From positions 70,832 through 134,831 of the forward strand of contig CAVPPF010000005.1 in NCBI GenBank assembly GCA_963707435.1: 64,000 bases of DNA, written 5' to 3'. Each line of letters starts with the position of its first letter. Position 1 is the first letter of the stretch. This stretch comes from an uncultured Actinomycetota bacterium (lineage in GTDB: Bacteria > Actinomycetota > Acidimicrobiia > Spongiisociales > UBA4744). Of this stretch, positions 563 through 12,859 are shown piece by piece. The notes under the pieces were generated by a model. The model worked only from the letters and a program-made list of their open reading frames with translations. It had not been told where the DNA came from and made no database searches. A program made the translations under genes and the position numbers.

Positions 563-1441
563 TCAGCGAATGGTGACTTCGACCGACCCGTCCGGCCGCA
601 CAACCCGGCCATCTGCGTCCTCTTCGCCCTCTTCGGGAGCCGAGGTTCTGATCGTGAAGCAGAAGCGGCTGCCCGTCGGAAACCGATGCTCGTACCAGAG
701 ATCGCCACCCATCGCTCGAGCCAGCCGCAGTGCAATGGGGAGACCCAGGCCGATCCCCTTGTCGGATCGCGCGTCGCCCTTGGAAAGCTGCTCGAAGTGC
801 GTGAATACCCGGTCGACATCGGCCTCGGGTATTCCGGGTCCGTTGTCGGACACCACGACGAGGTAGAACTCACCGTACGGACTGCCCTCGACGAGAACCT
901 GGTCACCGCCGTACTTGTGGGCGTTCTCCACCAGGTTGCGCAGAACCTGCTGGACCCTTCGCTGGTCGGCATACACAGAGACCCCACCGGGTATCGCCAC
1001 CGAAGCTTCCCGAGCGGATCCGGGTGGGAGAATCGCATTCGTGACGTCGTGGGCGACGTCGGACAGGTCGAACACTTCCAGATCGAGACGAAGCCGGCCC
1101 GCCTCCAGCCGGGGAATCACGAGAACGTCCTCAACCAGCTCGGAGAGATGCACGGCCTGCTTGTTGATGATCGTCAGAAACTCGTCGACTTCCTCGCTTG
1201 GCAGGTTCTTCCACGACTCGAGGAGCGTGTCCGTGAAACCGGCAATGGAGGTCAGCGGCGTGCGGAGCTCGTGGCTGACCATCGAGACGAACTCGTTCTT
1301 CATCCGCCTGGCCCGATCGGCCGATTGGGTGGCGAACTTCTCTCGCCCCCGGGCCGCCCGCACAGCACGGAGCGCAGCCACGACGGCCGCGACGGCGACC
1401 ACTACGGCGCTTCCACCTATCAGTTCAGGCAGGTGCTCCAT
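563..1441 (-). CDS. Membrane-anchored sensor histidine kinase (single N-terminal TM, HisKA + HATPase_c, no sensor domain)
   Basis: 292 aa. H-box SHELRTPLTSI; N/G boxes NLVENAHKYG, DNGPGIP, GIGLGL. One hydrophobic N-terminal segment. Confidence 0.85.
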   Translation of the reverse strand: MEHLPELIGGSAVVVAVAAVVAALRAVRAARGREKFATQSADRARRMKNEFVSMVSHELRTPLTSIAGFTDTLLESWKNLPSEEVDEFLTIINKQAVHLSELVEDVLVIPRLEAGRLRLDLEVFDLSDVAHDVTNAILPPGSAREASVAIPGGVSVYADQRRVQQVLRNLVENAHKYGGDQVLVEGSPYGEFYLVVVSDNGPGIPEADVDRVFTHFEQLSKGDARSDKGIGLGLPIALRLARAMGGDLWYEHRFPTGSRFCFTIRTSAPEEGEEDADGRVVRPDGSVEVTIR

Positions 1442-1566
1442 TGTGTTTCAGCCTCCAGCTGAGCGGCATGTTTGCCGCACACTGAGCTATCGACACGAAT
1501 CCCGGCGAGGTTGAGGCCTTCCGGATCGGTCTGAGGCCTTGCCGGTCGCGATGGCGGCCGGCTCGA

Positions 1567-2565
1567 TTAGGAATCTGGATCGCCGTAGAGCGAAGACAGG
1601 CTGAGCCGGGCTTCCTGCTCCAGGAGTTTCTGGTGGTGGTAGGCAGAATCGACCACTGCCGCCAGTGGGAACTCCACCATCCGCAACGTGCGGGCTACCT
1701 GGGGAGAGAAGACCCCGGGCCGTCGCGAACCGATGGCCAGGATCCCCAGCACCTGCCCCCGGGAACGCAAGCCCATCGCGAAGAACGAAGGCCATCCTCC
1801 GGCCGAGTCGGTCTCGGAAAACTCCTCGGTTCCCGACCGCCATACGCCCAGTTCCTCGGGGCTCACCGAAATCGATGCGAGCTGCTCGAGATGGCCGGCT
1901 GCCAGGGCACGGAAATGGTCGAATTCGGCCCGGGAAAGGGCCGTATCCATGCGAATCGCCAGGCGCCGTTCGGCGGCCAGTGCTATCCCGGCCAGGTCGT
2001 AGTCCACGAACCGGCGAAGGATCAACAGCGACTCCTGCACGGTCGTCGGCAGGTCCATGGCACGTGTCGCCATCGTGACGATGTCGTTCACGATGGTCGC
2101 GTCGAACAGTTTGCGGTCGAGCAGTTCTGTCACCCGGGCGAGGACGTCGACCTGATCGAGCTGCTGTGGGTCGACCTCGCCCGTCGTCAACTCGGAAAGG
2201 GCCCGGGTGGCCCGGGCACTTCGAATCGCCGCCAGCAGTTCCTCACCAAGCGATTCCTTGGTCAGATACCCGTCCGCTCCCGACTTCTCGGACCAATACC
2301 GGTCTTCGGCAGAGTCGAGCGCCGTCAAGATCAGGATGGGAATGTGGGCAACCGAGAAGTCTTCTTTGATCAGCCGGCATGCGACGTACCCGCTCATGCG
2401 CGGCATCTTGATGTCCAGGAGCACCATGTCCGGCGGCTCTGAGTAGAACTTCTGGATGGCCTCGATCCCGTCTTCGGCGATGACTACCTCGTAGCCCGCA
2501 TTCCGGAGAAGCGAACTCACCGCAGCCCTGACGACCGGGCTGTCGTCGGCGATCAGGATCCTCAC
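1567..2565 (-). CDS. Response regulator with REC domain plus C-terminal GAF-like domain and no DNA-binding output
   Basis: 332 aa. N-terminal MRILIADDSPVVR...VLLDIKMP (CheY-like receiver). C-terminal roughly 200 aa resembles GAF. The 4-bp ATGA overlap with the upstream CheA-like gene implies an operon. Confidence 0.8.
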   Translation of the reverse strand: MRILIADDSPVVRAAVSSLLRNAGYEVVIAEDGIEAIQKFYSEPPDMVLLDIKMPRMSGYVACRLIKEDFSVAHIPILILTALDSAEDRYWSEKSGADGYLTKESLGEELLAAIRSARATRALSELTTGEVDPQQLDQVDVLARVTELLDRKLFDATIVNDIVTMATRAMDLPTTVQESLLILRRFVDYDLAGIALAAERRLAIRMDTALSRAEFDHFRALAAGHLEQLASISVSPEELGVWRSGTEEFSETDSAGGWPSFFAMGLRSRGQVLGILAIGSRRPGVFSPQVARTLRMVEFPLAAVVDSAYHHQKLLEQEARLSLSSLYGDPDS

Positions 2566-4748
2566 CGGTTCACCTCCGTGCGGTCGGCGGGATCAAACCC
2601 GGTGCGCATCTCGAGCAGCGAGTTGAGCGTGGTAGCCAGCAAGCCCTGCCGCAGGTCGGCCTTGTCGAGATAGGCGTTCACGCCGGCCGCCCATGCCCTG
2701 GCCTGGTCCTCTTCGTCGGCAACGGCCGACACCATCACGACCGGGAGCGCCGGGAGGATGTTCCGAACCGACCGAACGAGGTCGACACCGTCAGAACCCG
2801 GCATGGCGTAGTCGACGACCAGAGCATCGAACTGCTCCGACTGGAGCTTGGCCAGACCTTCATCGGCGTCGCCTGCTACCAGGGTCTCAAATCCCAGGCC
2901 GGTGAGCACCGACCCGACCAGCTGGCGCGCCCCCGCCGAATCGTCCACGACGAGAACCCGCGGCCTCGAAACAACCGAATCCGGAACGGAACGCACCCGG
3001 TCACCCAACCGGTTGGGTTCGACGACCACGACGACCTCTCCCCCGCCGAGCACAGCCGCACCGGTCAGATGGGGGGTTCCCGCCAGCACCGGACCGAGGC
3101 CCTTGACGGCGACTTGCCGCCGGCCGACGATCCTGGGCACCGTCACGGCGATCAAACCCGATCGGGTGGCCAGCACGAGAACCTCGTTGACGGGCTCCGT
3201 CTCGGGAAGCCCGACTGCGGTGGCGAAGGATGAGATCGGCAACCGTTGTCCCTGGTGGATCAACTCCATCCGTTCCTTGCCCGGCCGCACCTCAGCACCC
3301 GACAAGGCGAACGCAGCGACGACGGCAGCACCCGGAATGCCCCACTGGCGGTCCTCGGCCGAAAGGAGCAGCATGTCCTGCAGAGCCCACGACGCCGGGA
3401 GCGTCAGCATGACCGACGTGCCGTGCCCCGGACGGGAATCCACGGTGATTCCACCGTTCAGCATTTCCGCGGTCTCGGCGACCAGCGCCAGGCCGGCCCC
3501 ATCGCCGCTCAGATCGGTCGCTTCGATCGACGTCGAGAATCCGCCCCCGTACAGCAAGCGGGTCAGCTCGCCTTCCCCGGGCGTCTCGTCGCCGGTCAGC
3601 AATCCCCGTTCCCAGGCAGAATCGCGAACGGCATCCCAATCGATGCCGCAACCGTCGTCCTCGACGGTGATCACCAGATTGCTCTTGGACACCTGAGCGC
3701 GCACGGCCAGCAACGCCGTGGCCGATTTGCCTGCTGCTTCCCGCACTTCGGGTGTCTCAATACCGTGATCGATGGCGTTCACGAGCAGGTGCCGCAGCGG
3801 TTCGCGGAGATGCTCGATGATCTGACGATCGACCTCGACTTCGTCACCGGCGAGCTCAAAGCGGATCTGTTTTCCGGTTCGACGGCACAGGTAGCGAACG
3901 AATTGATGGAACGTATCGGTGATCTCGGAGAGCGGCGCGGCTACCAGCTGGAGTGCACGCATCTGGAGATCTTCGACGGCCAGATCGAGGGTTTCCACAG
4001 CGGATTCCCAGCTGGTGGCCAGCGAAGCTACCTCACGGGGATTGCTCGAAACGGCGAAGCGCAGCGCGTGGACCGCCCCCGCCAGGGCGGCGGCGTCGAG
4101 TCGAACCTCCGCAGCCCGGTTGATCAACCGGTACAGCCTCGTTGTTTCAACCCGGGTGGCCGGCCCAACCAGACCGGACTCAACCGAAGACAGCAACCCA
4201 CCGAGATCGAGCAGCTCGGGGCCCGCCATTTCGGGAACGGGTCGAGCGGGTGCCGGAGAAGGCGGGGCCGGGGGTGGCACAGGGTTCGCTTCTGCCGGTG
4301 CGGGAGCCGGCGTCGAGCGGACCGGCGGCGCCGGTTCCGGTTCGTCCGCAACTCCCAGGAAGCTCTCCAGCGCCGTCACCGCTGATTGCAGTCCGGCCGG
4401 CCGGCCGTTGGTGCCTTCGTCCATCGCCCCGAGGAACTCGGCCGCGACGGCCTTCAACACCTCGCCGAGTTCCGGGCTCGGCGCCAGGACACCCTCCGAG
4501 ATATCTCGCCATGCTGCCTCCAGCACCCGGGCCGCTTCGCCCATCTCAACGAACCCCATCACACGTGAGGAGCCCTTGATGGTGTGGGCGTCCCGGAACA
4601 AGGTTGAGAACCGGTCGGTATCCAATCGCCCGGCCATCATGGCAGCGGATCCTTCAATCAGATTTGCGGAGCGTTGCGCGACCTCATCGCGGAAAATCGC
4701 CAGGAGCTCTGCATCGTTGCCCAACTCCACGTTGAACCTCTTCTCCAT
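2562..4748 (-). CDS. CheA-like hybrid histidine kinase: Hpt(P1), Pro-rich linker, dimerization, HATPase(P4), CheW-like(P5), C-terminal REC
   Basis: 728 aa. Hpt motif DAHTIKGSSRVMGF. N-box HLLVNAIDHGIE, G1 DDGCGID, G2 GDGAGLA. A CheW-like segment. C-terminal receiver VLVVDDSAGAR...VVDYAMPG. Confidence 0.85.
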   Translation of the reverse strand: MEKRFNVELGNDAELLAIFRDEVAQRSANLIEGSAAMMAGRLDTDRFSTLFRDAHTIKGSSRVMGFVEMGEAARVLEAAWRDISEGVLAPSPELGEVLKAVAAEFLGAMDEGTNGRPAGLQSAVTALESFLGVADEPEPAPPVRSTPAPAPAEANPVPPPAPPSPAPARPVPEMAGPELLDLGGLLSSVESGLVGPATRVETTRLYRLINRAAEVRLDAAALAGAVHALRFAVSSNPREVASLATSWESAVETLDLAVEDLQMRALQLVAAPLSEITDTFHQFVRYLCRRTGKQIRFELAGDEVEVDRQIIEHLREPLRHLLVNAIDHGIETPEVREAAGKSATALLAVRAQVSKSNLVITVEDDGCGIDWDAVRDSAWERGLLTGDETPGEGELTRLLYGGGFSTSIEATDLSGDGAGLALVAETAEMLNGGITVDSRPGHGTSVMLTLPASWALQDMLLLSAEDRQWGIPGAAVVAAFALSGAEVRPGKERMELIHQGQRLPISSFATAVGLPETEPVNEVLVLATRSGLIAVTVPRIVGRRQVAVKGLGPVLAGTPHLTGAAVLGGGEVVVVVEPNRLGDRVRSVPDSVVSRPRVLVVDDSAGARQLVGSVLTGLGFETLVAGDADEGLAKLQSEQFDALVVDYAMPGSDGVDLVRSVRNILPALPVVMVSAVADEEDQARAWAAGVNAYLDKADLRQGLLATTLNSLLEMRTGFDPADRTEVNR

Positions 4749-6384: not shown

Positions 6385-7542
6385 CTACCCCATGCCGACG
6401 CGCTGGGAACGCTGCAACGACTTGCCCTCGGTCTGCAGCGACGGGGCAATCATCACTTCGGCCTTCTGAAACTCTTTGACGTCTGCGTAGCCGGTGGTTG
6501 CCATCGACATCCGCAAGCCGCCGAAGAGGTTCCGCCGGCCGTCGTTCTCGTGCGCCGGACCGACCAGGATCTCCTCGAGCGTGCCGAGATCACCCACCTC
6601 GACGCGAGTTCCCCGCGGCAGGGTCGGGTGGAAAGTTGCCATGCCCCAATGAACTCCGCGGCCGGGAGCCTCGGTCGCCGCCGCCAGCGGTGATCCGACC
6701 ATGACGGCATCGGCACCGCAGGCAATAGCTTTGGCAACGTCACCGCCCGTGCGCATGCCACCGTCGGCGATGACGTGCACGTACCGGCCGGTCTCGTCGA
6801 GATACCGGATCCGCGCTCCGGCGGCGTCGGCAATGGCCGTTGCCTGAGGAACCCCCACCCCGAGCACGGCGCGAGTCGTGCAGGCGGCGCCCGGACCCAC
6901 ACCGACGAGGACGCCAACGGCCCCGGTCCGCATCAGGTGGAGGGCGGTCGAGTAGGAGGCACAACCTCCCACGATCACGGGCAGTTCAAACCCGGAAATG
7001 AACTCCTTGAGGTTGAGCGGCTCCGCCCGGGTCGATACGTGCTCGGCCGAGACAACCGTGCCCTGCACGACCAGGATGTCGAGGCCGGCCTTCACCGTGA
7101 GCGGGGCAAGGGACGCAGTTCGCTGCGGCGTCAGACTGCCTGCAACAACAACACCGCTCTCCTTGATCTCTCCGATTCGCCGTTCGATCAATCCTTCTTT
7201 GACGGGCTCCAGGTAGATCTCCTGCATGCGCAGGGTGGCCTTGTCCGCAGGGAGTTCCGCTATCTCCTCGAAGTAGGGCTCCGGGTTCTCGTACCGGGTC
7301 CAGAGCCCTTCCAGGTTGAGCACACCCAGACCACCCAGCTTCCCGATCGCAATCGCCGTTGCCGGGCTGATGGCCGAGTCCATGGCGGAACCCAGCATGG
7401 GCAGGCGAAACCGGAAGGCGTCCATCTGCCATGCAATGTCAACATCGTCGGGATCGCGCGTCCGCCGGCTGGGAACGATGGCGATATCGTCGAAGCCGAA
7501 TGCCTGGCGACCCGACTTGCCGATGCCGATGTCAATTTCCAT
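6385..7542 (-). CDS. guaB3: IMP dehydrogenase-family protein (GuaB3-like, no CBS pair)
   Basis: 385 aa TIM-barrel IMPDH/GMPR-family sequence (GGCASYSTALHL, IADGGMRTGGDVAKA). It lies immediately upstream of guaA, as in mycobacteria. Confidence 0.8.
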   Translation of the reverse strand: MEIDIGIGKSGRQAFGFDDIAIVPSRRTRDPDDVDIAWQMDAFRFRLPMLGSAMDSAISPATAIAIGKLGGLGVLNLEGLWTRYENPEPYFEEIAELPADKATLRMQEIYLEPVKEGLIERRIGEIKESGVVVAGSLTPQRTASLAPLTVKAGLDILVVQGTVVSAEHVSTRAEPLNLKEFISGFELPVIVGGCASYSTALHLMRTGAVGVLVGVGPGAACTTRAVLGVGVPQATAIADAAGARIRYLDETGRYVHVIADGGMRTGGDVAKAIACGADAVMVGSPLAAATEAPGRGVHWGMATFHPTLPRGTRVEVGDLGTLEEILVGPAHENDGRRNLFGGLRMSMATTGYADVKEFQKAEVMIAPSLQTEGKSLQRSQRVGMG

Positions 7543-7600: not shown

Positions 7601-7645
7601 GTCGTCAGACATCAGTTTTCGGTTGTCAGCTATCAATCATCAGAG
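7601..7645. repeat. Heptamer-periodic array (NTCAGNN)x6 in the guaB3 upstream spacer
   Basis: gtcagac atcagtt ttcggtt gtcagct atcaatc atcagag shows 7-nt periodicity. Confidence 0.5.
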
Positions 7646-7720
7646 TCGAACGCCGATTTGCGGGCTGCACAAGCCACACCGACACCTGCGAACGAAGCGC
7701 GAAGCTACGGAAGACTGAAA

Positions 7721-7775
7721 ACTCGAGTACCGAGTACCGAGTACCGAATACTGAGTACTGAATACTGAGTACTCT
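7721..7775. repeat. Tandem heptamer repeat (GAGTACY)x7; contains repeated AGTACT/GGTACC palindromes
   Basis: actcgagtac cgagtac cgagtac cgaatac tgagtac tgaatac tgagtac tc. It ends 8 nt before the CPBP start codon. Confidence 0.9.
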
Positions 7776-7783
7776 TCTCTCCC

Positions 7784-8545
7784 GTGAACCTGCCACCGCT
7801 CTCCGCCCCGCCATCGCATCGCTGGCGTTTCAGCGACTTCCTGTTCGTCTGGTTGGCCGGGTTCGTCGCATCCCTGATAGGCACCGCCGTCGGGATCGCC
7901 CTCGGTATGGGAGGGTCGCTCGAGGACCTGGCAGTCAGCGTTCCGCCCGAGTTGTTGTTCTGGGTAGCCCTCCCTGCCCAGTTCTTCGGGATGTTGCTGG
8001 CCCTGGCCTGGGTGAGTCAGCGGCGCGGATCGGGCAGTTTCGCAACGGATTTCGGATTCTCGATCCGGGTGCAGGACATCGGGTTCCTGTTCCTCGGCAT
8101 GCTGCTGCTTCTGGTCCTGGCGTTCGCGTTGACGCCGCTGGCAGAGCTGTTCGGAGTCGACGAAACCCCTCAAGTAACGACCGAGGCCATCGCCCAGGTC
8201 GTGGATCTCCCGACCCAACTCATGATCGTGCTGGCGGTGGCGATTGTCACGCCGATCGTTGAAGAGTTGACGTTTCGCGGTTTGCTCCTCCGCTTTCTGG
8301 AGGAACGGATGAACCCCCGGCGGGCCCTCGTGATCTCAGCAGTGCTCTTCGGGGCGTTCCACGTGCTGGGGACGAGCGGAACGGCCGGAGCCATCATCGC
8401 CATGGTGCAGACGTTTCTGGCCGGGCTGGTTCTGGCGTACGTGACCCAGAAGTCGGGCAAGCTGAGCCGCGCCATCTTCGTCCACGCCGGCTTCAATCTG
8501 ATCACGATTCTCGTGCTCTTCTTCGTCCCGGATCTGGGGATCTGA
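7784..8545 (+). CDS. CPBP-family intramembrane metalloprotease (CAAX protease / Abi)
   Basis: 253 aa, multi-TM. Conserved EELTFRG and FGAFHV motifs. Confidence 0.8.
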   Translation: MNLPPLSAPPSHRWRFSDFLFVWLAGFVASLIGTAVGIALGMGGSLEDLAVSVPPELLFWVALPAQFFGMLLALAWVSQRRGSGSFATDFGFSIRVQDIGFLFLGMLLLLVLAFALTPLAELFGVDETPQVTTEAIAQVVDLPTQLMIVLAVAIVTPIVEELTFRGLLLRFLEERMNPRRALVISAVLFGAFHVLGTSGTAGAIIAMVQTFLAGLVLAYVTQKSGKLSRAIFVHAGFNLITILVLFFVPDLGI

Positions 8546-8586: not shown

Positions 8587-9594
8587 CTAGGCCCCGCCGG
8601 CAGGGCGGGCATCGAAGCCGAGTTTCTTCCGCACGGAGGCCATCTCGCCCTCCGCCCGCATGCGAGCGTCGAGGGCTCCCTTGACCATGATGTGAGTGAC
8701 TTCTTCATCGTCCAGCGCTTTGAAACCCGTCCGGATCGAACTGAGACCCTCGACCACGGCTTCAGCGACGGTCACCTTGAAGTGTCCATACTGCGTTTCG
8801 TGGTATTCCTCGACCAGGTTGTCGACGGACCGGCCCGTGAAGAGGGAGAGAATATCCAGGAGGTTCGAGATCCCGGGCTTCTTGTCCCGGTCGTAGACGA
8901 TCTCATTACCCGAGTCCGTGACGGCCGATTTGAACCGCTTGCGGATCGTGTCCGGCTCGTCGAGCAAGAGAACCCGGCTGCTCGGGTCTTCGTCGGATTT
9001 CGACATCTTGGACGTCGGATCCTTCAACGACATGATGCGGGCGCCGACCTCCGGCGTGATCTGCTCGGGAAGGGGAAACTCTGCTCCAAATCGGGAATTG
9101 AATCGTTCGGCCAGGTCACGCGCCAGTTCGAGGTGCTGGGTCTGGTCGTCACCGACCGGAACGGCGTGGGCCTTGTGGACCAGGATGTCGGCGGCCATCA
9201 GCACCGGGTAGGCGTACAGACCGAGGTTCCTTCCGGCCTTGTCGGCCTTCTCCTTGAACTGGGTCATTCGATTCAGTGCCCCCAGGGATGTGATCGTGCT
9301 CAGCATCCACGACAGCTCAGCATGCTGAGGGACCTGGCTCTGGAAATACAGCAGCGAACGCCCGGGATCAACCCCGACGGCCAGCAGCAACTTGGCCGTG
9401 TTCAACCGACTCCGGTGAAGTGCCACCGGGTCGTAGGGCACCGTTATCGCGTGCAGGTCAACGACGCAGTAGATCGCGTCGTAGCTCTCCTGGAGCTTCA
9501 CCCAGTTGCGCAGTGCTCCGAGATAGTTGCCGATGTGGATGTCACCGGTCGGCTGAATACCGGAGAACACCGTCTTCTTGTCACTCACCTTCAT
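8587..9594 (-). CDS. trpS: Tryptophan--tRNA ligase
   Basis: MKVSDKKTVFSGIQPTGDIHIGNYLGA (HIGH motif) and KMSKS. Start taken at the ATG at 9594, preceded by GGAGGAG; the longer ORF to 9717 is an upstream extension. Confidence 0.93.
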   Translation of the reverse strand: MKVSDKKTVFSGIQPTGDIHIGNYLGALRNWVKLQESYDAIYCVVDLHAITVPYDPVALHRSRLNTAKLLLAVGVDPGRSLLYFQSQVPQHAELSWMLSTITSLGALNRMTQFKEKADKAGRNLGLYAYPVLMAADILVHKAHAVPVGDDQTQHLELARDLAERFNSRFGAEFPLPEQITPEVGARIMSLKDPTSKMSKSDEDPSSRVLLLDEPDTIRKRFKSAVTDSGNEIVYDRDKKPGISNLLDILSLFTGRSVDNLVEEYHETQYGHFKVTVAEAVVEGLSSIRTGFKALDDEEVTHIMVKGALDARMRAEGEMASVRKKLGFDARPAGGA

Positions 9595-9728
9595 CTCCTC
9601 CGATAGCCCCGGGATGGTACCGCACCGAACGGTGATCGCTTCGAAGACGGATCTTGTGCCGGCGCTCACGTACGGCCGAACGCCCCCATGGTTGACGCCC
9701 GTGCTTCGATCGGTCATACTGCGCCGCC

Positions 9729-9764
9729 ATGTTCATGCCCGTTGCCATCATCATTATCGTGTAG
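9729..9764 (+). CDS. Candidate Ile/Val-rich leader peptide MFMPVAIIIIV
   Basis: atg ttc atg ccc gtt gcc atc atc att atc gtg tag. Four consecutive Ile codons plus Val in an AT-richer 12-codon ORF, 70 nt upstream of citramalate synthase. Confidence 0.5.
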   Translation: MFMPVAIIIIV

Positions 9765-9816
9765 CGCATACGGACAGCCGTGTGCGCCCAACCCTTCGCC
9801 TCGCGAGGGGTTTTTT
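9765..9816 (+). promoter_or_regulatory. Candidate transcription attenuator: 9-bp hairpin (9765-9786) followed by a terminator-like hairpin CCCUUC[GCCUCGC]GAGGGG + U6 (9792-9816)
   Basis: cgcatacgg-acag-ccgtgtgcg stem-loop directly after the leader stop. Then cccttcgcctcgcgagggg tttttt, 17 nt before the cimA SD AGGAGAC. Confidence 0.45.
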
Positions 9817-9833
9817 GTTACCCAGGAGACACC

Positions 9834-11411
9834 ATGAAGACCGAGATCTACGACACAACGCTGCGAGACGGTTCTCAGCAGGAAGGGATTTCGCTGACGG
9901 TCGGCGACAAGCTTCGGATCGCTTCGCTGCTAGATGAACTCGGGGTCGATTACGTAGAGGGAGGATGGCCGGGCGCCAACCCCAAGGACGACGAGTTCTT
10001 CAGCCGGGCTAAGAAGGAACTTGATTTTGGCACTGCGACGCTGGTGGCCTTCGGTTCAACCCGACGGCCGCGCGGGACGGTTGCGACTGATCCTCAGCTG
10101 CAGGCCTTGCTCGCCGCGGAGACCGAAATCATCTGCATCGTCGGCAAGTCATGGGACTACCACGTCCTCGAGGCCCTCCGGACGGATCTCGATGAGGGAG
10201 TCCGCATGGTCGAAGAATCGATCCGCTACCTCCGTGACAAGGACCGGCGCGTCTTCTTCGATGCCGAACACTTCTTCGATGGCTTTCGAACCAACCCCGA
10301 CTACGCGCTCCGGGTACTTCAGGCTGCCACCGATGCGGGTGCGGAACGATTGGTGCTCTGTGACACCAACGGGGGCACCCTGCCGTCCGAAATCCTCACG
10401 ACCATCGGAAAGGTCCAGAACGCCTTCCCGAGCGGTCAGCTCGGGGTCCACTTCCACGACGATGTCGGCTGTGCAGTTGCCAGTTCTCTCGCCGCCGTCG
10501 ATGCGGGAGTCCGCCAGGTGCAGGGATGTATCAACGGGTACGGGGAGCGGACCGGCAACGCCGACCTGTCCACGCTCATCCCGGACCTGGCCCTCAAGAT
10601 GAAGCTTCCGGTCCTCCCCGAAGGACGGCTCGAGTTGCTCAGCCCGGTTGCCCACCACGTAGCCGAAGTGATCAACATCGCCCTCGACCCCCATCATCCG
10701 TACGTCGGAACATCGGCGTTCACGCACAAAGCCGGGCTGCACACATCGGCCTTGGCCCGCCGGTCGGATGCATACGAACACGAAGATCCCGCACAGGTCG
10801 GAAACTCCACCCGGATGGTTGTTTCCGAGTTGGCCGGCCGGGCCAGCGTCCTTTCCGAAGCCAGGAACCTGGGGCTCGAGGTCGACGCGGACACCGCGGT
10901 TCGCATTCTCGAAGAGGTGAAGGATCTCGAACACAAGGGTTACCACTTTGAGGCCGCCGACGGGTCGTTCGAACTGCTGATGCGGAGAGCCCTCGGATGG
11001 ACACCGGACTTCTTCGAGTTGGAGTCCTTCCGGGTCTTCACGGACCGGCGCGCCGACGAAGAGATCGTTGCCGAAGCGACCGTGAAGGTAGTCGTCGCCG
11101 GCGAACGGGTCGTCACGACGGGCGAAGGAGTCGGGCCCGTGCACGCCCTGGACCAGGCTCTTCGTGCCGCCTTGCGCAACGCCTATCCCAACATCGATCG
11201 TCTCCGACTCACCGACTACCGCGTCCGGGTGCTGGATTCTTCGCACGGGACCGGGGCGGTCGTCAGGGTGCTCCTCGAGACATCCGACGGAGACGACACG
11301 TGGGGCACCATCGGGGTGCATGAGAACGTCATCGAGGCATCGTGGGATGCTCTGACGGAAGGCCTCATCGTCGGGCTGCTCCGCCGGCAAGCCGCAGAAC
11401 GTCCCGTATAG
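9834..11411 (+). CDS. cimA: Citramalate synthase (LeuA/HCS family, CimA-type)
   Basis: 525 aa. MKTEIYDTTLRDGSQQEGISLTV...DYVEGGWPGANPKD with a LeuA-dimer-like C-terminal regulatory domain. Start ATG 9834, with SD AGGAGAC. Confidence 0.85.
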   Translation: MKTEIYDTTLRDGSQQEGISLTVGDKLRIASLLDELGVDYVEGGWPGANPKDDEFFSRAKKELDFGTATLVAFGSTRRPRGTVATDPQLQALLAAETEIICIVGKSWDYHVLEALRTDLDEGVRMVEESIRYLRDKDRRVFFDAEHFFDGFRTNPDYALRVLQAATDAGAERLVLCDTNGGTLPSEILTTIGKVQNAFPSGQLGVHFHDDVGCAVASSLAAVDAGVRQVQGCINGYGERTGNADLSTLIPDLALKMKLPVLPEGRLELLSPVAHHVAEVINIALDPHHPYVGTSAFTHKAGLHTSALARRSDAYEHEDPAQVGNSTRMVVSELAGRASVLSEARNLGLEVDADTAVRILEEVKDLEHKGYHFEAADGSFELLMRRALGWTPDFFELESFRVFTDRRADEEIVAEATVKVVVAGERVVTTGEGVGPVHALDQALRAALRNAYPNIDRLRLTDYRVRVLDSSHGTGAVVRVLLETSDGDDTWGTIGVHENVIEASWDALTEGLIVGLLRRQAAERPV

Positions 11412-11455: not shown

Positions 11456-12859
11456 ATGACGCCGGATGAGTTTCGACAGCGCGGCCGGGAGATCATCGAC
11501 TGGATCGCCGGCTACATGGAGCGAGTCGAAGACTATCCCGTGCTTGCGCAGGTCAAACCCGGCGACATCCGCGCCGGTTTGCCCGAACATCCGCCCGCTT
11601 CCGGCGAGGACTTCGAACGTGTGGTTGCCGACCTCGACCGGATCGTCATGCCGGGCATCACCCATTGGCAGTCCCCCAGCTTCTTCGCCTACTTCAATGC
11701 CAATGCTTCTGGACCTGCGATCCTCGGGGACCTCGTCTCGTCCGGGCTGGGGGTTCAGGGCATGCTGTGGGCAACCAGTCCGGCCTGTACGGAACTCGAA
11801 ACCCACGTCATGGATTGGCTGGTGGAGATGCTGGAGTTGCCTCCGGCCTTTCTCTCGTCGGGGTCCGGGGGCGGGGTCATCCAGGATTCCGCCTCCAGTG
11901 CGACCCTCACGGCCATCATCGCCGCTCGAGAGGCCGCCACAGCAGGCGCGAGCAACCGTACGGGGGCTCGCGGCGACCTGGTCGCCTACACCTCAAACCA
12001 GGCACACTCGTCGATCGAGAAGGGCATCCGGATAGCCGGGATCGGCGGCGACAACCTCCGTTCGATCGAGGTCGATACGGCGTTCGCCATGGTGCCGGAG
12101 GCGCTGGAGAGGGCCATTGAGGACGACCTGGCTGCCGGCCTTCGACCCTTCTTTGTGTGTGCCACCGTGGGTACCACCTCGTCGACGGCCATTGATCCGG
12201 TCCGTCGAATCGGTGAGATCTGCCGCCAGTATGGGATCTGGTTGCACGTTGATGCGGCGCTGGCCGGGACGGCAGCCCTGCTCCCGGAAATGCGCTGGAT
12301 CCACGACGGCCTCGAACTGGCAGATAGCTACGTATTCAATCCGCACAAGTGGATGCTGACCAACTTCGATTGCACGGCCTTCTATGTAGCCGACCGAATG
12401 CGCCTCATCGGGGCCCTCTCGGTGCTGCCCGAATACCTGCGAAATGAAGCGTCGGCATCCGGGGCGGTGATCGACTACCGGGATTGGCAGATCCCGCTCG
12501 GCCGCCGTTTCCGGGCTCTGAAGCTCTGGTTCGTGATTCGTCACTACGGGGTCGAGGGTCTGCGTGCCTTCGTTGCCGAGCACCTGCGCCTTGCGGAACT
12601 CTTCGCCTCGTGGGTGGAGGCCGATTCCGATTTCGAGTTGGCTGCTCCAGCGCCCATCAATCTCGTCTGTTTCCGCCACACCGGCGGGGACGCGATCAAC
12701 CAGCGCATCATGGACGGCGTCAACGACTCGGGAAGGATCTTCATCACCCACACCCGGCTCGACGGGAAACTCACCCTGCGCATGGCGATCGGTCAGACCC
12801 ACACTTCCGAGCGACACGTCCGGCAAGCCTGGGAACTCATCCAGGAGGCGGCCGGATAG
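11456..12859 (+). CDS. PLP-dependent group II decarboxylase (aromatic-L-amino-acid / tyrosine decarboxylase-like)
   Basis: 467 aa. PLP lysine context SYVFNPHKWMLTNFDC. Matches the DDC/TyrDC family along its whole length. Confidence 0.85.
   Translation: MTPDEFRQRGREIIDWIAGYMERVEDYPVLAQVKPGDIRAGLPEHPPASGEDFERVVADLDRIVMPGITHWQSPSFFAYFNANASGPAILGDLVSSGLGVQGMLWATSPACTELETHVMDWLVEMLELPPAFLSSGSGGGVIQDSASSATLTAIIAAREAATAGASNRTGARGDLVAYTSNQAHSSIEKGIRIAGIGGDNLRSIEVDTAFAMVPEALERAIEDDLAAGLRPFFVCATVGTTSSTAIDPVRRIGEICRQYGIWLHVDAALAGTAALLPEMRWIHDGLELADSYVFNPHKWMLTNFDCTAFYVADRMRLIGALSVLPEYLRNEASASGAVIDYRDWQIPLGRRFRALKLWFVIRHYGVEGLRAFVAEHLRLAELFASWVEADSDFELAAPAPINLVCFRHTGGDAINQRIMDGVNDSGRIFITHTRLDGKLTLRMAIGQTHTSERHVRQAWELIQEAAG

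Follow-up and report, generated by a model that had tools for sequence, protein, structure and literature searches.

The window analysed here is a 64,000-nucleotide (nt) stretch of the genome of an uncultured bacterium of the class Acidimicrobiia (contig CAVPPF010000005.1, positions 70,832 to 134,831), and the element in question is a leader of ∼90 nt that precedes its citramalate synthase gene, cimA. The leader encodes a short peptide with a run of isoleucine (Ile) codons near its end, followed at the stop codon by a hairpin, which we call H1, and shortly thereafter by a predicted intrinsic terminator, T. Judged from its sequence and from those of its relatives, this arrangement is very probably an Ile-sensing leader-peptide attenuator of cimA transcription. 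An earlier note on this DNA had proposed an Ile-responsive transcription attenuator at this position; conservation, compensatory base changes and a contrast in codon content with the leaders of ilvB operons all argue for that reading. We also consider likely the fuller account given below, in which a ribosome on the leader would tie cimA to charged tRNA-Ile by way of H1.

The cimA leader and its two hairpins

The leader open reading frame (ORF) occupies positions 9729–9764 of the forward strand, exactly where the earlier note had placed it, and consists of 11 sense codons and a TAG stop (ATG TTC ATG CCC GTT GCC ATC ATC ATT ATC GTG TAG). The peptide is MFMPVAIIIIV, leader peptides being written here up to the stop codon. 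Its putative regulatory codons are the four Ile codons at 9747–9758 (ATC ATC ATT ATC), after which come a valine (Val) codon, GTG, and the stop. H1 spans 9764–9787 on the same strand. In the RNA fold its 5′ arm (9764–9773) pairs with its 3′ arm (9778–9787) across an ACAG loop (9774–9777), and the first base of the stem is the G of the TAG stop. This hairpin had been predicted at the correct place with 9 base pairs (bp), but we find 10, one of them a G-U pair. Following a 2-nt spacer (CC, 9788–9789) is T with its U tract (9790–9816, forward strand), in which 9790–9799 pairs with 9803–9812 across a CTC loop (9800–9802) and a run of six T residues (9811–9816) begins inside the stem, its first two residues being paired. 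The presence of a terminator and U6 ahead of the cimA Shine–Dalgarno (SD) sequence had likewise been recognized, but the stem drawn for it, with 6 bp and a 7-nt loop, is replaced in the RNAfold structure by one with 10 bp and a 3-nt loop. The SD sequence, AGGAGA (9824–9829, forward strand), is not sequestered by any conserved pairing. The leader stop lies 69 nt before the cimA ATG, in agreement with the ∼70 nt estimated previously.

The gene that follows the leader runs from 9834 to 11411 on the forward strand, starts with the ATG at 9834 and encodes a protein of 525 amino acids. This protein scores 682.7 bits against the TIGR00977 equivalog model, for which the cutoff is 450, and the models for isopropylmalate and homocitrate synthases (leuA, nifV) score far under their own cutoffs. 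By its curated equivalog score the predicted product is citramalate synthase, CimA, as the earlier note had also named it.

Several comparisons bear on whether the module could have arisen by chance. The segment 9762–9818 folds into exactly H1 plus T with an energy of −33.6 kcal/mol and an ensemble frequency of 0.71; dinucleotide shuffles of the same segment average −16.9 kcal/mol (z = −6.19), and none of 200 folds as well. A terminator scan picks up the T site, with 0.6 sites expected. Across the whole window (62.7% guanine plus cytosine, GC), the leader holds the sole run of at least three Ile codons, all frames of both strands considered (128 kb counted), and no similar leader was found elsewhere in the 64 kb. 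Among 77 related loci, Ile-codon runs reach a density of 2.8 per kb within 200 nt upstream of cimA, counted in the sense orientation, versus 0.012–0.037 per kb elsewhere, an enrichment of ∼100-fold over background. By these measures, the leader and its predicted two-hairpin module are not a chance arrangement.

The start of the leader differs from the classical picture. A consensus scan finds a sigma-70-like promoter element on the forward strand at 9692–9720, with a −35 hexamer TTGACG (9692–9697), a 17-nt spacer and a −10 hexamer CATACT (9715–9720). The pattern TTGAC(N)-17-CATACT recurs in most of 36 high-GC orthologous loci, and CATACT is exact in 24 of them. The gap between the −10 box and the first in-frame ATG is mostly 8–10 nt across loci and 8 nt in the window, and an SD-like sequence precedes the leader in only 1 of 39 loci and is lacking in the window. 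Because a conserved promoter lies 8–10 nt before the ATG and no SD sequence is present, this arrangement implies that the leader is a leaderless-type ORF, the transcription start being placed here by the promoter motif. Leaderless leader peptides are common in Actinobacteria, with ilvL, leuL, trpL and others in Streptomyces and Corynebacterium (PMC8079986).

The earlier note had named conservation upstream of cimA orthologs as a check on its reading. We sampled 80 cimA loci, one genome per species, nearly all labelled Acidimicrobiia and with protein identities of 54–83%. In 39 of these loci, a short ORF just upstream of cimA ends in two to five Ile codons (II to IIIII), 0–2 further codons and a stop, and is followed by a stop-codon hairpin and a terminator. 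A covariance model made from seven of the leader loci recovered all 39 and additionally matched L019 (a partial match at a contig end), L045 (a variant whose leader ends in …GLILT) and L073, where the leader precedes leuB-cimA. Counted over the loci whose operon upstream region is visible, the Ile-run ORF with its terminator is present upstream of cimA in 41 of 44, and the reading thereby withstands the refutation by lack of conservation that the note had named. In 34 further loci (within L034–L079, positions ∼1–1500; most are of Acidimicrobiales or Microthrix type), cimA is internal to an operon, closing a leuB-X-cimA arrangement whose own upstream region falls outside the fetched flank; two other loci were too short to judge. 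Gene X, like leuB on the strand of cimA, encodes ∼300 amino acids, and its end abuts or overlaps the start of cimA. In L073, a member of the Acidimicrobiaceae, the leader VKAFLTAVIIIS (293–386) precedes a leuB-cimA operon (genes at 449–1438 and 1435–3081), and its terminator has a poor U tract (GTTGCCGTT).

The module was also recovered by a metagenome scan whose pattern comprised only the promoter, an ATG and three Ile codons. At least 120 contigs matched, ∼93 of which parse as leaders of the cimA type. In 66 contigs the ORF after the leader was verified to be cimA, the remainder being contig ends or reads of cimA in the wrong frame, and essentially no target of the same promoter and Ile leader other than cimA appeared among the metagenome contigs listed. 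The module is kept from 32% GC, in Candidatus Actinomarina (MKKIIIII), to about 70% GC. The best 120 protein matches to CimA hold only close Acidimicrobiia relatives and no distant homologues.

Both hairpins are supported by covariation. In an alignment of 45 covariance-model matches, 95.3% of cells form standard pairs and 19 of 20 pairs show compensatory double changes, counts that are somewhat inflated because the alignment was fitted to the model structure. H1 has compensatory changes in all 10 of its pairs (94.8% of cells paired) and T in 9 of 10 (95.9%). None of 500 shuffles reaches any of five covariation measures, and shifting the pair partners by 1–3 columns leaves only 31–64% pairing. 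The sequence of H1 has been wholly replaced among lineages while its position is unchanged: it reads GCGCAYACG…CGURUGCGC, GGCGUCCACC…GGUGGACGCC, GGGGCC…GCCCC or AGCAGCGUU…AACGUUGUU, the last of which contains G-U pairs. Since pairing is kept through complete sequence replacement and through G-U wobbles, H1 is an RNA helix, and the possibility that it is the palindrome of a DNA operator is ruled out.

The geometry of the module is equally constrained. In 114 parsed leaders, the start of H1 lies within 0–4 nt of the first stop-codon base in about 83%, and the spacer between H1 and T measures 0–7 nt in about 85%, with a mode of 2–3 nt; the longer spacers mostly belong to bipartite versions of H1 of which only the inner helix was parsed. 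Nearly all leaders have a T stem of 9–11 bp with a U-rich tail, and T ends 50–63 nt after the leader stop. The last regulatory codon is usually one codon before the stop, and H1 has a stability of −17 to −26 kcal/mol.

The leader ORF shares its frame with cimA in the window, with only the TAG between them, and the ORF listing starts an ORF at GTG 9780. Read-through of the TAG from the leader into cimA is ruled out by the leader–cimA spacing in orthologs, which is not a multiple of three. For the same reason, the shared frame looks coincidental.

Codon content of the cimA and ilvB leaders

Orthologous cimA leaders have 8–16 codons, with a variable N-terminal part, and end in II, III, IIII or IIIII, 0–2 codons and the stop. 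Across 117 distinct peptides, the Ile run and its distance to the stop are the only conserved features. The leaders of ilvB operons provide a built-in control for the role of these codons. A generic search of 1.17 Mb of fetched sequence for a short-ORF stop followed by a hairpin and an adjacent terminator returned 74 matches, 70 of which were Ile leaders. One was a distinct leader, MNNSQLTTVLLIT, located upstream of ilvB-ilvN-ilvC-leuA-leuB at 7392–7432 on the reverse strand of contig L152, a contig that also has a cimA leader (MFKTTATIIIC). Six further Acidimicrobiia ilvB loci all have a promoter-proximal short ORF with Val, leucine (Leu) and Ile codons just ahead of its final sense codon and stop (MTNTPLTTVLLIT, MKQDFAADVTLLIE, MKQLFTAADVLLLIE, MKQPLSAVEVLVLIR, MKHLTIAADVLLLIE and MYNHQYPVTDLLIE), and each of the six is then followed by a stop-codon hairpin and an adjacent terminator. 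Two of the ilvB leaders come from the same genomes as cimA loci, namely L054 (MTEDTLLTTIIIR) and L048 (MRGNQPASRIIIP), and the two kinds of leader are found together in three genomes (L054/L201, L048/L204 and the L152 contig).

The ilvB leaders end in V(T/L)LLI-X-stop and the cimA leaders in III-X-stop. The ilvB module thus swaps the Ile run for Val, Leu and Ile codons, and codon content therefore tracks the pathway. This matching of codons to pathway (Ile alone versus Val, Leu and Ile) is, on sequence evidence, the strongest argument that the codons act as sensors. The two kinds of leader have nearly identical hairpin sequences and the same layout of promoter, hairpin and terminator, and they look like duplicates of one module whose codons have been retuned. 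In L201–L209, the ilvB leaders lie about 100–200 nt upstream of ilvB (gene start at 601; at 277 in L202 and 463 in L207).

These observations also bear on a reading in which the leader has no link to cimA and is an independent small gene, encoding a small RNA or a hydrophobic micropeptide, with a terminator of its own. Promoter, ORF and terminator do make up a complete transcription unit of ∼90 nt. Yet everything in the peptide apart from the Ile run and its distance to the stop varies freely, the unit always precedes cimA or leuB-cimA in the same orientation, and the 10–25 nt between T and the cimA ATG in many loci leave no room for a second cimA promoter. The ilvB version, moreover, carries Val, Leu and Ile codons in place of the Ile run. 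We give an independent gene next to no credence.

Other features of the leader peptides deserve mention. ATT makes up 30% of leader Ile codons versus 6.4% of those in cimA coding sequences, and nearly every high-GC leader has exactly one ATT among its Ile codons (9753–9755 in the window), typically as ATC ATT ATC or ATC ATC ATT. Threonine (Thr) accounts for 28% of the variable part of the 117 distinct peptides (L001–L200), although the leader in the window does not itself bear Thr. At positions −1 and −2 before the Ile run no residue is more frequent than Thr (42 of 116 and 60 of 116, respectively), and the same holds right after the run. This recalls the thrL leader of Escherichia coli with its Thr and Ile codons. 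A shortage of Thr may also de-repress the Thr-independent route in many lineages; alternatively, the abundance of Thr may reflect a mere preference for codons that are rich in C and unstructured. Between the Ile run and the stop (n = 123), the residue is Thr in 25 leaders, proline (Pro) in 24, aspartate (Asp) in 22 and glutamate in 8, with Asp-Pro in two; in the window it is encoded by the GTG at 9759–9761. C-terminal Pro and Asp-Pro slow peptide release, and slow release at these residues would hold the ribosome on the stop codon and keep H1 open longer.

Proposed coupling between the ribosome, H1 and the terminator

The earlier note had described the architecture as ilv/leu/trp-type. In the strict sense this does not hold, because no antiterminator sharing a strand with the terminator was found. 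H1 and T share no nucleotides in any of the 114 parsed leaders, and both form in the minimum-energy fold of the window segment. We also folded the leader with a ribosome masking the RNA, its A site placed in turn on the first Ile codon, the last one and the stop codon. Most of H1 is retained with the ribosome on the Ile codons, and the hairpin is lost once the stop is occupied. The stretch reaching from one hairpin loop to the other, in which the H1 3′ arm could pair with the T 5′ arm, has less structure than its shuffles (−3.7 versus −6.0 kcal/mol). Eight duplex pairings were evaluated in addition: the ORF with the 5′ and 3′ arms of both hairpins, the H1 loop with the T 3′ arm and U-rich tail, the H1 5′ arm with each T arm, and the H1 3′ arm with the T 3′ arm. 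All eight are at shuffle level, with mean z values from −0.21 to +0.69.

These results make it very unlikely that a classical trp/ilv-type attenuator, in which a stalled ribosome frees a segment that pairs with a terminator arm, has been overlooked here. The leader ORF, the regulatory codons and the terminator do match the classical list of parts, and many loci have (C)GCC both at the 3′ end of H1 and at the apical end of the T 5′ arm, which would permit a cross-pairing of 3–4 bp. Against this stand the absence of overlap between H1 and T, the masked folds, which always keep T, and the behavior of the loop-to-loop segment and the eight duplexes. A frameshift at hungry codons, carrying the ribosome through the stop into H1 and T, was rejected as well on inspection of the sequence: AUC AUC AUU AUC is not slippery, and the other frames are not consistently open across loci.

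Control at the level of translation was considered in the same way. Here, translation of the leader would alter a duplex that hides the cimA ribosome-binding site, for which there is a precedent in Mycobacterium smegmatis (bioRxiv 10.1101/834739). In some loci (L029, L033), GUGUGC in the H1 3′ arm can pair with GCACAC just before the cimA ATG. Over the full set, however, pairing of the H1 3′ arm with the cimA initiation region is at control level (mean z −0.25; −8.9 kcal/mol versus −8.4 for shuffled and −8.7 for cross-locus controls), H1 would out-compete any such long-range helix, and a canonical terminator with its U tract is conserved. Translational attenuation of cimA is therefore highly improbable.

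The account that we favor instead is a ribosome-mediated transcription attenuator that works through H1. Transcription would start at or within ∼3 nt of the leader ATG, giving a leaderless-type mRNA, and a ribosome would translate the 11-codon ORF while the polymerase makes H1 and then T. When Ile is sufficient, the ribosome would pass the four Ile codons and arrive at the TAG, where it must unzip the 5′ arm of H1 in order to terminate, the TAG being the place where H1 starts. With the RNA before T now a flexible single strand, T would fold in the exit channel of the polymerase, and transcription would stop at the U tract, ∼85–90 nt from its start. When Ile is scarce, the ribosome would wait at an Ile codon 3–12 nt before the TAG with its leading edge only at the foot of H1. 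H1 would remain folded 0–7 nt upstream of T, T would be ineffective, and the polymerase would read into cimA. H1 is suitably placed and may also pause the polymerase ∼10–12 nt downstream, inside T and before the T 3′ arm has been made, and such a pause would let a slowly initiating leaderless ribosome catch up.

We assume a ribosome footprint that reaches ∼13 nt past the P-site codon's first base. With this footprint, a ribosome on an Ile codon would come no further than the foot of H1, and one with the TAG in its A site would have to open most of the H1 5′ arm, so that the state of H1 would report passage of the Ile codons. A 26-nt ribosome occlusion is used in the work on M. tuberculosis ilvB1 (PMC13236596). 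We infer from the geometry the ribosome position that melts H1. The polarity, in which folded H1 leads to read-through and unzipped H1 to termination, was chosen because only that polarity makes biological sense, and we regard it as evenly balanced between right and wrong; it would be the logic of M. tuberculosis ilvB1 with no overlap of the helices. How folded H1 might act on T can be suggested only tentatively: H1 and the stalled ribosome at its foot could shorten and stiffen the tether to the 5′ base of T, leaving them too close for the lower T stem to enter the exit channel. We infer this steric step without a precedent, and it is the weakest part of the account. If it were true, the leader would be ON by default and a start-codon mutant would show high expression, the opposite of trp. 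A wider generalization, that Acidimicrobiia possess a kind of attenuator without alternative pairing, for at least cimA and ilvB, in which H1 serves as a non-overlapping antiterminator, is likewise possible but doubtful.

A number of points weigh against this account. T is kept in every ribosome-masked fold, with no alternative to it, and the ten candidate pairings are no better than shuffles, leaving no sequence-encoded competitor of T. That T folds at every ribosome position and that no competitor was found both count against the proposition that folded H1 prevents termination. We know of no precedent for a non-overlapping antiterminator hairpin. One computational study argues that adjacent hairpin clusters promote termination (PMC8355165). 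The inflation of pair counts in the covariation alignment belongs here as well, as do three cimA or leuB-cimA loci (L006, L067 and L070) in which the upstream intergenic region is visible but the module is lacking. Divergent genes are found upstream in two of them: a DEAD-box helicase-like gene ∼40 nt from cimA in L006, and a greA-like gene ahead of leuB in L070.

The leading rival is an Ile-sensing attenuator in which H1 is a pause or synchronization hairpin and nothing else, read-through arising from expressome-like contact between a stalled ribosome and the paused polymerase, or through a factor such as NusA or NusG. Because the regulatory codons are never more than 1–2 codons away from the stop, a ribosome stalled on them sits directly against H1, and a pause induced by H1 10–12 nt downstream would precede the making of the T 3′ arm. 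Closely trailing ribosomes, moreover, can suppress intrinsic termination, as described for pyrBI and in the expressome literature. On the other hand, the stop codon keeps the ribosome from following the polymerase to T, a ribosome stalled earlier, on the first Ile codon or on Thr codons before it, leaves a tether long enough for T to form, and H1 (at −17 to −26 kcal/mol) is far more stable than a pause hairpin needs to be. We consider a pause-only role for H1 unlikely, and the ribosome-gated account remains the one that we prefer.

The genes around the leader can be described briefly. A divergent trpS gene (8587–9594, reverse strand; TIGR00233, 336.8 bits) lies outside the attenuator and bounds the 240-nt intergenic region. 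Upstream of trpS is a gene for a GuaB3-family protein related to inosine monophosphate dehydrogenase (6385–7542, reverse strand; TIGR01304, 554.8 bits), which appears unrelated to the attenuator, and between the two lies an unannotated ORF of 191 amino acids (7640–8218, reverse strand). On the other side, a gene resembling pyridoxal-phosphate-dependent decarboxylases (11457–12859, forward strand) begins ∼45 nt after cimA on the same strand. Its best match is weak (L-2,4-diaminobutyrate decarboxylase, 157 bits against a cutoff of 900). This gene may be co-transcribed with cimA and would hence also be under the Ile attenuator.

Relation to known attenuators

Searches for a known counterpart agree with the earlier note, whose author was aware of no description of such an element for citramalate synthase genes in high-GC Gram-positives. 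For the window region and six orthologous loci, no Rfam family matches at its gathering score; at E values up to 10, the window region gives only MicF and istR, which are sub-threshold chance hits. Full-text literature searches found no report of citramalate synthase or cimA with a leader peptide or attenuator, and cimA is not mentioned in a comparison of actinobacterial RNA elements (PMC1262725) or in a catalogue of Streptomyces lividans leader peptides (PMC8079986).

Enterobacterial leaders (trpL, ilvL/ivbL, leuL, thrL, hisL and pheL) resemble the cimA leader in their tandem codons for the end product, their terminator and their sensing of ribosome position, and many cimA leaders are rich in Thr and Ile, like E. 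coli thrL. In contrast to these leaders, the cimA leader lacks the overlapping 1:2, 2:3 and 3:4 helices, its regulatory codons lie outside the helix-forming region, its ORF is much shorter, and it appears leaderless, not SD-led. A start-codon mutant is also predicted to behave differently, with constitutively high expression for the cimA leader and super-attenuation for trp.

The leaderless leaders of Streptomyces and Corynebacterium (ilvL, leuL, trpL; PMC8079986, PMC1262725, PMC3890552) are similar in that they carry cognate codons within 12–18 codons, followed by one or two hairpins, often with a U stretch, before genes for amino-acid biosynthesis or tRNA synthetases. The strict order of stop, H1, 0–7 nt and T found for cimA is undescribed among them, and cimA is not listed as a target. 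For several of these leaders the mechanism is unclear or contested; according to PMC1262725, mutations in the S. coelicolor ilvB leader were without effect. The polycysteine leaderless short ORFs of mycobacteria (Canestrari et al., bioRxiv 10.1101/834739) share with the cimA leader a run of codons for a single amino acid near the end and control by stalling. Unlike the cimA leader, they act on translation, through a duplex that hides the ribosome-binding site, and have no terminator.

A closer parallel is provided by the actinobacterial ilvB leaders of M. tuberculosis (ilvB1NC; Nat Microbiol 2026, PMC13236596) and Corynebacterium (the ilvB-II motif, PMC10272879; a three-hairpin model, PMC11857589). 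These have a short upstream ORF with branched-chain codons just before the stop, a post-stop hairpin that is masked by a terminating ribosome and spared by a stalled one, in a two-state logic, and then a Rho-independent terminator that runs into a U tract. The ilvB1 model of M. tuberculosis was proposed and partly tested: the post-stop hairpin is masked there by the terminating ribosome, and mutation of the LVVI codons abolished induction (PMC13236596). The Acidimicrobiia ilvB leaders (…VLLLIE) resemble this LVVI leader. The difference lies in the helices. In the M. tuberculosis and Corynebacterium leaders the post-stop hairpin is described as exclusive with the terminator, or an antiterminator pairs with a terminator arm, whereas in the cimA leader H1 and T are separate, adjacent helices. 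The cimA leader further differs from ilvB1 in its Ile-only codons, in its target and in its apparently leaderless start, the ilvB1 transcript having a conventional leader. Mutually exclusive helices define both the classical and the M. tuberculosis type, and in their absence the cimA leader is a member of neither.

The cimA leader would extend ribosome-mediated attenuation to the Thr-independent (citramalate) route to isoleucine and to the Acidimicrobiia. This class of Actinobacteria from marine, soil and wastewater habitats is abundant and mostly uncultured, and hardly any of its regulation is known. The pairing of an Ile-only leader with cimA and of Val/Leu/Ile leaders with ilvB would also be independent evidence that the TIGR00977 enzyme serves isoleucine synthesis in vivo. 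The ∼130 natural variants, spanning 32–70% GC, lack the overlapping antiterminator that every textbook model requires, so that either there is an unrecognized ribosome-gated coupling between hairpin and terminator, or ideas about what a terminator needs upstream of it are incomplete. As a compact, protein-free Ile sensor of ∼90 nt, the element could serve in high-GC hosts. Set beside the known systems, it is a previously undescribed element, at the least a new target gene and a new taxon for leader-peptide attenuation, and its closest functional kin within ribosome-mediated attenuation are the actinobacterial ilvB leaders.

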